From Escherichia coli O127:H6 str. E2348/69 (GTDB lineage Bacteria; Pseudomonadota; Gammaproteobacteria; Enterobacterales; Enterobacteriaceae), in assembly GCF_000026545.1 (NCBI RefSeq), contig NC_011603.1: a stretch of 64,000 bases of DNA; one strand, given 5' to 3'. Positions 32,401 through 35,400 of this stretch are shown here, piece after piece (position 1 is the first letter of the stretch; each line of letters opens with the position of its first letter). Made by a program: the position numbers.

Positions 32401-35400
32401 CTTTATGTGTGGCTCGTTTTCTTGCCAGGGATGCCTGCTGACGTTCTGCAAGCGTCAGAGGATTACCTTTTCTGTATGCTCGCTTTGTACCTGATGAGGA
32501 AGTCACTGCATTTTCTGTCTGCGACATCTCGCCTCCTCAATTCTCAAACAGGGATCGTTTCGCAGAGGATACTACAGTTTTTTGAAATCAGCGACTTGAA
32601 AGTTGTGACGATGATCTGTGTTGGCGCACAAATCATGTCTGATTACGACCGTTTAATGTGATTTTGATAATGAAATGACTGAAAAGATGGAAATGCCTTA
32701 ACCTGTGTGCCGGCCCCGGGCGGGACCGGCTGTTTCTGGCATGTCGGGTGTCTGCCCCTGAAATACCTCACACTTCCGGAAAGCGGGGACTTCCGTCCCC
32801 GCCCGGCAGCTTACTTCCGTGCTTCGTAGGCCAGAGTTACCTGCACCACTGTATTTCCCCTGTGAATATTCAGCTCACATAACCGTTCCCTGAATATCAG
32901 TAAAAAACACAACACCGTGGCGCACACGGCGAGCACCCCGATAAGGGCATATTTCGTCATAAACTTTGACCTCTCTGCAAGGACTGTCTCTTATACACAA
33001 ATCCCCACCCGGGGATTTGTGATGTCTGTCAGTCTGCTTTAGGGGGACTCTTTCCATCCGGTAGTTTCCTTCCTCCCCGGCAGCGATTTTTTGAACTTTT
33101 TCCTCACCTGTTGATCTTCTCTTATATTTCATTTTCTTCGGGTCTGTTATGGTACTTTCTGATTGTTATTCATGGGCTAACGAGCAGTTTGGACATGCCC
33201 GTCTCGGTGATCCGCGTCGTACACGACGCCTTGTGTCACTGGCCTCTTCTCTCGCTCAGCATGCAGGTCTTTCTATTGTGAAATCATCCCAGTCCACTGC
33301 TCAGGTTGAAGGTGCGTACCGCCTGATACGTAACCCGTCTGTGTCCCCGCAAGCCATTGCCGAAGCCGGATTTACCGCCACTGTAAGGGCATGTGAGGCT
33401 CATCCGCTGCTCCTCGCGCTGGAAGACACCACCACCATTAACTTCAGTCACAGTACGGCATCTGATGACCTGGGGAATACCACCACTAACCCGAAGACGC
33501 GCGGGCTGCTGGCTCACTCTGTCCTGATGTACGCCCCCGACAGCGCCCTGCCAGTCGGTCTTATCGAACAGCAGCGCTGGAGTCGTGCCACGGACACCTA
33601 CGGTGTTAAGCACCAGCGAAAAGAACGTCCCTATGAAGAAAAAGAAAGTTACCGCTGGCAGCAGGCTTCGGAGCGCATGGCCGAACGGCTGGGGGAGATA
33701 CAGAAACGGGTAATCACTGTCTGTGACCGGGAAGCGGATATCTGGCATTACCTGCATTATAAAGTCAGCCACGGGCAGCGCTTCGTGGTGCGTGCAGCAC
33801 AGAATCGCCGGCTGGAAGAAGCACCCGGCAAGCTCTTCGAACTGCCGGAAGTCCTGGCAACCGCGGGAAGCCACACGCTGAATGTGATGCAAAAAGGCGG
33901 GCGGGCAGCCCGCCAGGCCCGGATGTTCATCAGTTACAGCGAAGTCAGCATAAAAAATCCCGACAACAGCGGCCAGGCGCTCCCGCTCACGTATGTCTGT
34001 TGCCGGGAGCAGGCAGAGGACGGCGCCTGCTGGCATCTGCTGACGTCAGAAAAAGTGGCGAGTGCCGCCGATGCGCGACGTATCGTCAGCCATTACGAGC
34101 GACGCTGGCTGATAGAGGAATACCACAAGGCGTGGAAAAGTGGTGGTACATGTGTGGAATCGCTGCGAATGCAGACCCGGGATAACCTCGAGCGCATGGT
34201 GGTTATCAAGGCGTTTATCGCGGTGCGGGTGCTGGGCCTGCGGCAGGGCGGTATCAGTGAAGAAACACAAAATGACAGCTGTGAGAAAATACTGACGCCG
34301 ACAGAGTGGAAACTGCTGTGGGTTAAGCTGGAAGGAAAACCGCTTCCGTCACAGATGCCGACACTGAAATGGGCCTGTCTGAAACTGGCGAAACTGGGGC
34401 GATGGCATGACAGCAAACGCACCGGTCGCCCCGGTTGGGTAGTCATGTGGGATGGCTGGTTCAGACTTCAGGATATGGTTGAGGGTTACCTGGTGATGAA
34501 GTCTCTTGATCAGGAGATCTGATCAAGAGACAGGTCATACAGAGGGCGCTTTTATTATTCTGCCAGGATCGCCCGCAGCTCATCCTTGATCCGGTTCTGT
34601 CTGCGCACCTTTTCCAAGCGCGCCTGCGCATACTGTTCTTCTTCCTGTGTGATATGTTCTGTCACATAGCCTTCTGTATCATAGCGGCAGGCACCGGCTT
34701 TCATGGCGCCAAGATAGCTTTCTGAACGGGTGATGGCCTTCAGTGCCCTGCGCAGTTTTTTATGAGAGAGCGGGATATTCCGCTGAGACACCTCATCCAG
34801 TAAAACTTCCCGGATACCACAGGCAAGAAGCCGGGGCGTGTTACCGTCAAACAATCCCGGCCACCAGGGTTTCAGAGTGTTCACCGCCTCATCCAGTGAG
34901 GGCAGCGTCAGATAAATGGACAGCGCCTGTCTGGCCTGTGCTTTCTTCGCCGCCAGCTCTGCTTCCCGGGCAGCCTTCTCCGCCAGTTTCTGCTTTTTCA
35001 CCTTCCATTTTGGTGGCGTGGTGACATTGATGATGGTTTTCCGGCTCCGGGTCGGTGTTTCCCCTTCCGTTTTCCGTTTCAGTGTCAGTACCGGTCGTTT
35101 CTGCTCTGTCATGATTGCCCTGACCTTTGTGAAAATATGTCCTCCAGGTCGTTGAAACTACTCACTATGATATTAAGCTGACCTCAACGACCTCTGACAT
35201 ATTAATACCGACAATTAAAGATGTTTTTTAAACCATTGCGTCTGTACTGCCGCCACACGTTCAAAAAACGCGCCTTCATAAATATCATAATGGCATGCGT
35301 CAGCTTCCTCGTATAATTCCTTAGTACCAGAAGCAACAGCATCATATAAGGCTCTTCCCTGTTCTGGTGGATTAACACTATCCTGGCCGGCAATAACAAC

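Follow-up and report, generated by a model that had tools for sequence, protein, structure and literature searches.

Does the finO gene at the end of an F-type transfer operon in this DNA still encode a complete FinO, and would conjugation of the plasmid that carries it probably be repressed by the FinOP system? The window, by which we mean the whole stretch of 64,000 nucleotides that was analysed, had been described in an earlier note as containing an uninterrupted finO within a tra region very similar to that of F, fertility inhibition being probably functional. The features on which the question turns are these:

15460-16717, minus strand: IS3 copy of 1258 bp with annotated IS3 transposase, not associated with finO
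32984-34535, plus strand: ISEc13, an IS4/IS50-like element of 1552 bp, transposase at 33149-34522, convergent with finO
34536-34554, minus strand: what ISEc13 has left of the finO 3' UTR, comprising the 5' arm and the loop of the native hairpin
34555-35112, minus strand: finO coding sequence, 185 codons plus stop, ATG start, uninterrupted
35113-35214, minus strand: orf286-finO intergenic region with the finO ribosome-binding site
35215-36075, minus strand: orf286, an alpha/beta hydrolase gene between traX and finO
36134-36880, minus strand: traX (Pfam TraX, E=3.9e-65; also annotated)
36900-64000, minus strand: tra operon from traI to traB, traB being cut by the window end

Replicon, transfer operon and integrity of finO

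The whole window is plasmid pMAR2 (NZ_CP059841.1) of EPEC E2348/69, that is, pMAR7 minus Tn801. Positions 30046-64000 showed 100% identity with pMAR7 (NC_010862.1), and assignment of the window to pMAR7 proper was rejected because the 4.95-kb Tn801 was absent and pMAR2 was matched instead. Both are forms of the known EPEC adherence-factor virulence plasmid, which is IncF with an F-type transfer region; this plasmid also bears the bfp and per virulence genes. From traB to traX the nucleotide identity to F was 96.3-99.7%, with the exception of the traS allele, and the RefSeq annotation placed no pseudogene flag on any tra gene. The genes from traI to traB are those that FinOP would be expected to control through TraJ. 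The description of the tra region as very F-like held for this block and failed at finO itself, whose identity to F was 87-90% at the nucleotide level and 88.6% at the amino acid level (21 differences, against a reconstructed F FinO). Neither finO nor the traJ described below is the F allele, and the likeness to F is limited to the structural tra genes.

When ORFs were listed, exactly one of 185 amino acids with zero internal stops occupied 34555-35112. Its product matched FinO_N (PF12602) at residues 1-62 (E=1e-38) and ProQ/FinO (PF04352) at residues 73-177 (E=1.6e-27), as well as the NCBIfam FinO model NF010317 with 347.6 bits (cut-off 136) over profile positions 1-185 of 186, and therefore this is not a chance ORF. 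The RefSeq product label is FinO (WP_000139319.1), and residues 1-151 of the 1DVO chain aligned ungapped with residues 33-183 of pMAR2 FinO (E=1.5e-85). The gene lies at the distal end of the minus-strand operon, in the order traI-traX-orf286-finO, as in R100. Neither IS3 nor any other element was found inside the ORF, which is not in the finO::IS3 state of F; the claim of a full-length, uninterrupted gene was thus confirmed. The splitting of finO by IS3 in F, also part of that claim, was seen in NC_002483 together with its AGC duplication. The sole IS3 copy in this DNA shares 99.76% identity with the one splitting F finO and lies 17.8 kb from finO, in agreement with the distance of about 18 kb that had been given.

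The RNA-crosslinking residues of FinO are Lys46, Lys81, Arg121, Lys125, Arg165 and Lys176, and Trp36 is critical to its chaperone activity (PMC3105414). By alignment, Trp36 and all six crosslinking residues were identical in pMAR2 FinO, F, R100 and 1DVO. Within a 25-sequence FinO alignment, the protein of pMAR2 kept 42 of the 42 invariant columns and 38 of the 38 near-invariant ones. It showed 90.3% amino acid identity (18 substitutions) to R100 FinO, and the dN/dS of the gene, 0.127 versus F and 0.154 versus R100, indicates that finO is under purifying selection. The identical protein was present on at least 1000 public contigs. The finO gene of pMAR2 is whole and conserved, and its product retains the RNA-contact residues. 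The protein departs in length from F and R100 FinO only by one residue, which falls at the variable C-terminus; the possibility that 185 amino acids represent a truncated FinO was considered and rejected, since the length of the C-terminus varies among natural alleles and the 185-residue form is common.

Upstream of the gene, the orf286-finO intergenic region with its ribosome-binding site was 100% identical to those of R100 and CP099191.1; the sequence upstream of finO in F differs because F lacks orf286. A promoter scan found no convincing sigma-70 consensus on the minus strand of this intergenic region, and the one weak match around finO fell inside orf286. The product of orf286 matched Pfam Abhydrolase_1 (E=2.6e-33) and NCBIfam NF047920, the UilS-family acyl-homoserine lactonase, with 505 bits (cut-off 400). 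This gene is shared with R100 and missing from F, where finO directly follows traX, and a literature search pairing orf286 with finO found no report.

finP, the traJ leader and the expected repression

The earlier note had looked to the adjacent sequence for finP and traJ, and both were found there, on the same replicon, 3.67 kb beyond the window end in pMAR2 and with identical sequence in pMAR7. The FinP gene matched Rfam RF00107 with 95.3 bits (gathering score 45) over model positions 1-76 of 76, at 37624-37699 of L001, and the traJ_5 leader, complementary to FinP, matched RF00243 at full length with 115.6 bits (gathering score 50). A candidate finP promoter, TTGACT-17-TACGAT, which is a consensus match only, is situated within the beginning of traJ at 37589-37617 of L001, 6 nt ahead of the FinP 5' end, and the finP terminator consists of SLII followed by AATTTT. 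The fold predicted for pMAR2 FinP has two stem-loops, the same as F FinP (z=-9.5). pMAR2 FinP has exactly the SLII stem and GACA spacer of F FinP; its loop sequences are different, which would be expected of a distinct finP allele.

The traJ ORF, of 228 amino acids, is intact and located between traM and traY. Its product shares 24% identity with F TraJ, a weak but significant similarity (E=4e-7), and also 24% amino acid identity with R100 TraJ. It falls below the NCBIfam TraJ cut-offs, which points to a divergent traJ allele, too divergent for annotation pipelines to name. The traJ/finP allele of pMAR2 is possibly of the R1 type.

With these partners on one replicon, the established FinOP model would apply as follows. 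FinO, a ProQ/FinO-domain RNA chaperone whose action is not plasmid-specific, would be translated from finO, the gene that closes the tra operon, and would bind FinP at its stem-loop II and 3' tail, shielding this RNA from RNase E. It would also accelerate the pairing of FinP with the leader of the traJ mRNA, and this pairing would hide the traJ ribosome-binding site. TraJ would then be scarce, the main tra promoter mostly off and plasmid transfer low and repressed, with transient higher transfer expected only in fresh transconjugants, until FinO builds up. We consider that pMAR2 and pMAR7 carry an ordinary intact finO which probably acts by this model (probability about 0.8), a judgement made from sequence. 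The proposal that FinOP is probably functional came out positive in each sequence-level test, and we infer that pMAR2 FinO represses transfer and that it is expressed at an adequate level with ISEc13 in the finO 3' UTR.

The ISEc13 junction and other readings

The earlier note missed that an ISEc13 end lies 19 bp past the finO stop, where it breaks the native 3' hairpin. The element, which RefSeq also names ISEc13, encodes a transposase with the Pfam domains Tnp_DNA_bind, DDE_Tnp_1 and Dimer_Tnp_Tn5 and a match to the NCBIfam IS4 transposase of 514 bits. Its boundaries were set by comparison with a second copy, identical and inverted, which lies beyond the window, and its ends read CTGTCTCTTATACACAA... 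and ...CTGATCAAGAGACAG. The boundary next to finO is at 34535/34536, outside the ORF. No target duplication accompanies this copy, and about 2.28 kb of CP099191.1 are missing there. In CP099191.1, an IS-free relative, finO is followed by TAA-TAAAAGCG-CCCTCTGT-ATG-ACAGAGGG; in pMAR2 the 3' arm of the hairpin has been swapped for the ISEc13 end CTGTCTCTTGATCAG. Folding indicated that the native 9-bp hairpin is lost in pMAR2 and that a 13-bp hairpin forms from the ISEc13 end instead. Just past the finO stop, a hairpin comparable to the native one was present in CP099191.1, F and R100. On the finO strand no U-run follows either the native hairpin or that of the IS end and, as a consequence, neither was called an intrinsic terminator.

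Among the best 5000 PLSDB matches, only pMAR7 and pMAR2 had the ISEc13-finO junction, which is lineage-specific and could influence finO expression. Loss of the native hairpin could change the stability of the finO mRNA 3' end, and the convergent ISEc13 transposase gene could read antisense into finO. The two inverted ISEc13 copies flank the finO-to-oriT segment, of about 40 kb, and this pair could turn the transfer region into a movable or invertible module.

These data raise the possibility that FinO dosage is altered by the element, repression being weakened (partial derepression) or reset in comparison with IS-free relatives. The cutting of the CCCTCTGT-ATG-ACAGAGGG hairpin with deletion of the 2.28 kb, its replacement in the folds by a hairpin of the ISEc13 end and the restriction of the junction to the two plasmids among those 5000 matches all speak for such an effect, and the strong hairpin past the finO stop in F and R100 suggests that a 3'-end structure is conserved. 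On the plus strand, moreover, the hairpin of the lost arm followed by a T-run would have stopped transcripts that run towards finO. In 1992, van Biesen and Frost reportedly tied orf286 or the level of finO mRNA to the strength of fertility inhibition. However, the finO coding sequence, its ribosome-binding site and the upstream region are untouched, the 13-bp hairpin supplied by the ISEc13 end, some 17 nt further along, is stronger, IS transposase promoters are mostly weak and there is no sign of derepression in the low transfer of EAF plasmids. We therefore regard altered dosage as unlikely, and it is correspondingly doubtful that ISEc13 re-tunes the FinO level and the conjugation rate from outside the finO frame; if it did, its position at finO would be a milder counterpart to that of IS3 in F.

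FinO could also be made and serve mainly RNAs of terminator type other than FinP, such as the antisense RNAs of plasmid copy-number control or of toxin-antitoxin systems; the low transfer of EAF plasmids would then be due to something else. Wide distribution of the gene is compatible with this, as finO occurred in 3445 of 5426 complete E. coli genomes and some small plasmids retain only traI, traX and finO (PMC5102898); in Salmonella, pSLT FinO binds a FinP-like sRNA that belongs to another plasmid, whose copy number it controls (PMC8136791). Nevertheless, a full cognate pair of FinP and traJ leader, with canonical SLII and 3' tail, is on the same replicon, which puts the classical target well ahead of any other in likelihood, and we consider a main role elsewhere to be very improbable. 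Derepression by a cryptic inactivating missense change within the intact ORF, for which the 21 amino acid differences from F and 18 from R100 (Cys135Gly and Asn69Thr included), the one residue less in length and the substitution of 19 of 151 residues, again with Cys135Gly, relative to the biochemically studied F/R6-5 FinO might be invoked, is barely credible. Each difference sits in a naturally variable FinO column, Gly135 being found in several other alleles, and all functionally mapped residues are retained, so the check by alignment for an inactivating mutation, on which the claim of a functional system had been made to depend, turned out in its favour. The dN/dS of about 0.13-0.15 and the presence of the same protein on at least 1000 contigs also argue against it.

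Plasmid transfer and likeness to known systems

An ordinary finO acting through FinP on traJ, the reading that we prefer, predicts low, repressed spread of the EAF plasmid with transient bursts, from the intact gene and its cognate finP/traJ leader. This agrees with the low frequencies of related plasmids, since tra-positive EAF plasmids related to pMAR2 are transferred at 10^-6 to 10^-9 (PMC5684527). These rates, measured on other EAF plasmids, are below typical repressed IncF values and suggest that other factors may contribute; a literature search for the transfer frequency of pMAR7 itself found no value. Transfer of F is 2-3 logs above that of natural finO+ IncF plasmids (PMC5102898), and deletion of finO in pKpQIL increased transfer about 100-fold (PMC9246713). 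It would be expected, then, that pMAR7 minus finO is derepressed and useful in conjugation studies. A FinO/ProQ review (PMC9977716) contained nothing on R6-5, IS3 or derepression.

There is nothing remarkable in the contrast with F that the earlier note implied, as all the classical F-like (group A) plasmids surveyed are finO+ except F (PMC5102898). Natural F-like plasmids carry an intact finO by default, and F is the exception. Furthermore, the public entries for pMAR7 and pMAR2 already include the finO annotation; the finding is correct and ordinary, and its importance here is little beyond bookkeeping.

Comparison with F (NC_002483) places finO at the same position, the end of the tra operon. 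In F the gene is split by IS3 after the ...RSES codons with a 3-bp AGC duplication, whereas that of pMAR2 is whole, and TraY has 133 amino acids in F and 75 in pMAR2. R100 (NR1), a naturally repressed plasmid, has the gene order traX-orf286-finO in common with pMAR2, and its FinO (WP_000139321.1) is of 186 amino acids versus 185. After finO, R100 continues with genes for an ANR regulator, a nuclease and hha, while in pMAR2 ISEc13 abuts finO and the backbone then leads directly to hok/RepFIIA. The traJ genes of these two plasmids are unrelated in sequence.

At the protein level, the crystal structure of FinO 26-186 (1DVO), which the literature assigns to R6-5/F-like plasmids, shares 87.4% identity with pMAR2 FinO; 19 of the 151 aligned residues are substituted, mostly conservatively. 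Both have the N-terminal helix that includes Trp36, and in both a basic patch is formed by Arg121, Lys125 and Arg165. Finally, pMAR2 FinP has the two stem-loops, the GACA spacer and the U-rich 3' tail of the FinP RNAs of F-like plasmids, but its SLI and SLII loops are unlike those of F and R100 and its 3' tail reads AAUUUU instead of GAUUUU.

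The finO gene and its product

The earlier note had described finO as whole and FinOP, in which FinO (an RNA chaperone) and the antisense RNA FinP act on the traJ mRNA leader, as probably functional. The gene was found unbroken and at the coordinates given there; it closes the tra operon, where traX, orf286 and finO follow each other:

35215-36075, minus strand: orf286, encoding an alpha/beta hydrolase, between traX and finO
34555-35112, minus strand: finO, uninterrupted ORF of 185 codons starting with ATG

The predicted protein contains both the FinO_N (E=1e-38) and the ProQ/FinO (E=1.6e-27) domains, matches the NCBIfam FinO model over its entire length (347.6 bits, cut-off 136) and aligns with the crystal structure chain 1DVO without gaps (E=1.5e-85). 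FinO of F, reconstructed in silico by excising IS3, was aligned with those of R100, 1DVO and the window. The window protein shared 88.6% identity with F, 90.3% with R100 and 87.4% with 1DVO, and the only length difference was one C-terminal residue; the 185-residue C-terminus is common to several large clusters. Trp36, the residue most critical for annealing and chaperone activity, and Lys46, Lys81, Arg121, Lys125, Arg165 and Lys176, which crosslink to FinP stem-loop II (SLII) (PMC3105414), were all conserved. Alignment with 24 diverse FinO representatives showed the family residue at 42 of 42 invariant and 38 of 38 near-invariant columns, the unusual residues being in variable columns (e.g., Gly135, which is Cys in F and R100). 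No inactivating FinO mutation was apparent in these alignments. The dN/dS values of finO (0.127 against F and 0.154 against R100) indicate purifying selection. In addition, R100 has exactly the same 100-nt spacer between orf286 and finO, ribosome-binding site included. The identical protein is present on at least 1000 public contigs. Of 5426 complete E. coli genomes, 3445 have a finO homologue, the window allele (at least 99% nucleotide identity) being a minority form with 61 records.

Two FinO database entries, P0099 and P0101, neither of them from the window, carry an unrelated stretch at approximately residues 20–58 with normal FinO sequence on either side. The pattern resembles that of a double frameshift; the two entries would then represent finO alleles that are either defective in nature or wrongly sequenced.

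At equivalog level, the orf286 product hits NCBIfam NF047920 with 505 bits (cut-off 400). This model describes the UilS-family acyl-homoserine lactonase, a quorum-quenching enzyme, and the newer pMAR2 annotation names the gene uilS. UilS has been characterised in Serratia (PMC11633161).

FinP and traJ on the parent plasmid

As the window ends inside traB, finP and traJ were sought on the parent replicon. In PLSDB, about 4 kb around finO showed 100% identity to pMAR7 (NC_010862.1, 101,558 bp) and to pMAR2 of E2348/69 (NZ_CP059841.1, 96,603 bp). Positions 1-20199 correspond to pMAR7 1-20199 and the remaining window to pMAR7 from 25146 on, with one mismatch somewhere in 20192-33246 and none in 30046-64000. 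The window lacks the Tn3-family transposon Tn801 (4.95 kb, blaTEM-2), whose insertion point in pMAR7 is at about 20192-20199, inside an IS4-family (ISSfl1-like) element, and is therefore wild-type pMAR2, parent of pMAR7. It includes the bfp operon, perABC, the RepFIIA replicon and most of the F-type tra operon. Among the adherence-factor (EAF) plasmids of enteropathogenic E. coli, pMAR7/pMAR2 is the prototype; its sequence dates from 2006 (cited in PMC5684527).

Both partners, which the earlier note expected beyond the window, were identified on pMAR7 (L001 being its coordinate handle) and pMAR2:

L001 37624-37732: FinP and traJ 5' leader, by Rfam
L001 36944-37630 (pMAR7 record 71943-72629): traJ, intact ORF of 228 codons between traM and traY, outside the window

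FinP was full-length (95.3 bits, gathering score 45), the traJ 5' leader scored 115.6 bits (gathering score 50), and the sequence is identical in pMAR2, 3,669 bp past the window end. FinP has the same SLII stem and GACA spacer as in F and R100, whereas both loops diverge, in line with a distinct finP allele, and the 3' tail is AAUUUU instead of GAUUUU. The predicted fold is that of the two stem-loops of F FinP (−39.3 kcal/mol, z=−9.5), the FinP start is preceded at 6 nt by a putative promoter (TTGACT-17-TACGAT), and SLII with its T-run scores as a terminator.

TraJ has only 24% identity to TraJ of F and of R100. It falls far under the NCBIfam TraJ cut-offs (25.6 bits versus 349) and is consequently named "PAS domain-containing protein" in RefSeq, so searches for traJ by name will miss this allele. 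The allele is common: coverage of the traJ-finP query reaches at least 80% in no fewer than 1654 PLSDB plasmids. No pseudogene flags were found among the tra genes in the pMAR2 annotation. Every sequence component of FinOP thus appears to be present and intact.

ISEc13 beside finO

An insertion sequence that the earlier note missed adjoins finO, and an identical, inverted copy lies outside the window:

32984-34535: ISEc13 (IS4/IS50-like, 1552 bp), ending 19 bp past the finO stop codon
L001 41513-43064 (pMAR7 record ~76,512-78,063): second ISEc13 copy

The transposase gene of the first copy is convergent with finO. In CP099191.1, a relative without ISEc13 at this place, a 9-bp hairpin, CCCTCTGT ATG ACAGAGGG, comes after the finO stop; a strong hairpin directly after the stop is also seen in F and R100. 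In the window, the IS end has taken the place of the 3' arm of the CP099191.1 hairpin and brings a 13-bp hairpin of its own. No target duplication accompanies this copy, and a 2.28-kb stretch of the finO-hok backbone of CP099191.1 is missing there. The distal copy interrupts a SAM-methyltransferase gene of the leading region, with the 8-bp repeat GACGCAAC on either side. At its termini the element has the IS50 inside-end sequence, CTGTCTCTTGATCAGATCT, and a near outside-end, CTGTCTCTTATACACAA. The inverted pair brackets the whole finO-to-traM/oriT segment (~40 kb), and among the 5000 best PLSDB matches the finO-ISEc13 junction was present only in pMAR7 and pMAR2.

The main caveat to a functional FinOP is that ISEc13 may affect the finO mRNA level. 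Van Biesen and Frost reportedly tied, in 1992, the strength of repression among F-like plasmids to finO mRNA level and orf286. That the adjoining element re-tunes finO expression seems improbable to us; if true, it would be of modest interest and the sole reading with some novelty. The intact finO is confirmed and, as far as sequence reaches, probably functional fertility inhibition is supported; we assign this reading a probability of about 0.8.

Comparison with F and other F-like plasmids

This finding is ordinary: F-like plasmids normally have an intact finO, this one had been annotated before, and the plasmid is a familiar reference. Among 256 F-like plasmids surveyed, all the classical (group A) ones except F were finO+, and F transfer exceeds that of R1, R100 and pSLT by two to three orders of magnitude (PMC5102898). 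In pKpQIL, deletion of finO led to piliation and to about 100-fold higher transfer (PMC9246713). pMAR7 was reported as self-transmissible, and for four further tra-positive EAF plasmids the transfer frequencies were 10^-6 to 10^-9 (PMC5684527), low values that are consistent with repression, although we do not claim them as proof.

As had been stated, IS3 interrupts the finO gene of F (NC_002483); AGC is duplicated there over 3 bp. In the window, the IS3 copy placed 18 kb away by the earlier note was located 17.8 kb from finO:

15460-16717: IS3, 99.76% identical to that of F

In the traS gene (46037-46546) and the adjoining traG 3' end, the sole break in the 96–99.7% F identity of the tra structural genes was observed; the corresponding F segment (24157-24820 in L002, the F coordinate handle) has no match in the window, which is compatible with a different entry-exclusion allele. 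Between traD and traI, on the plus strand and thus opposite to the tra genes, 42250-42880 holds a vapBC toxin-antitoxin pair, as is the case in F.

The description of the tra region as very F-like holds for the structural genes from traB to traX (96.3–99.7% nucleotide identity, several proteins being identical), but it does not extend to finO, traJ, TraY and orf286. The finO gene shares 87–90% nucleotide identity with that of F, traJ is unrelated in sequence to F traJ, TraY is of the short 75-residue type of R100, unlike the F allele, and orf286 is present here and in R100 but missing from F. On these alignments, the regulatory genes are non-F alleles and the transfer region is a mosaic.
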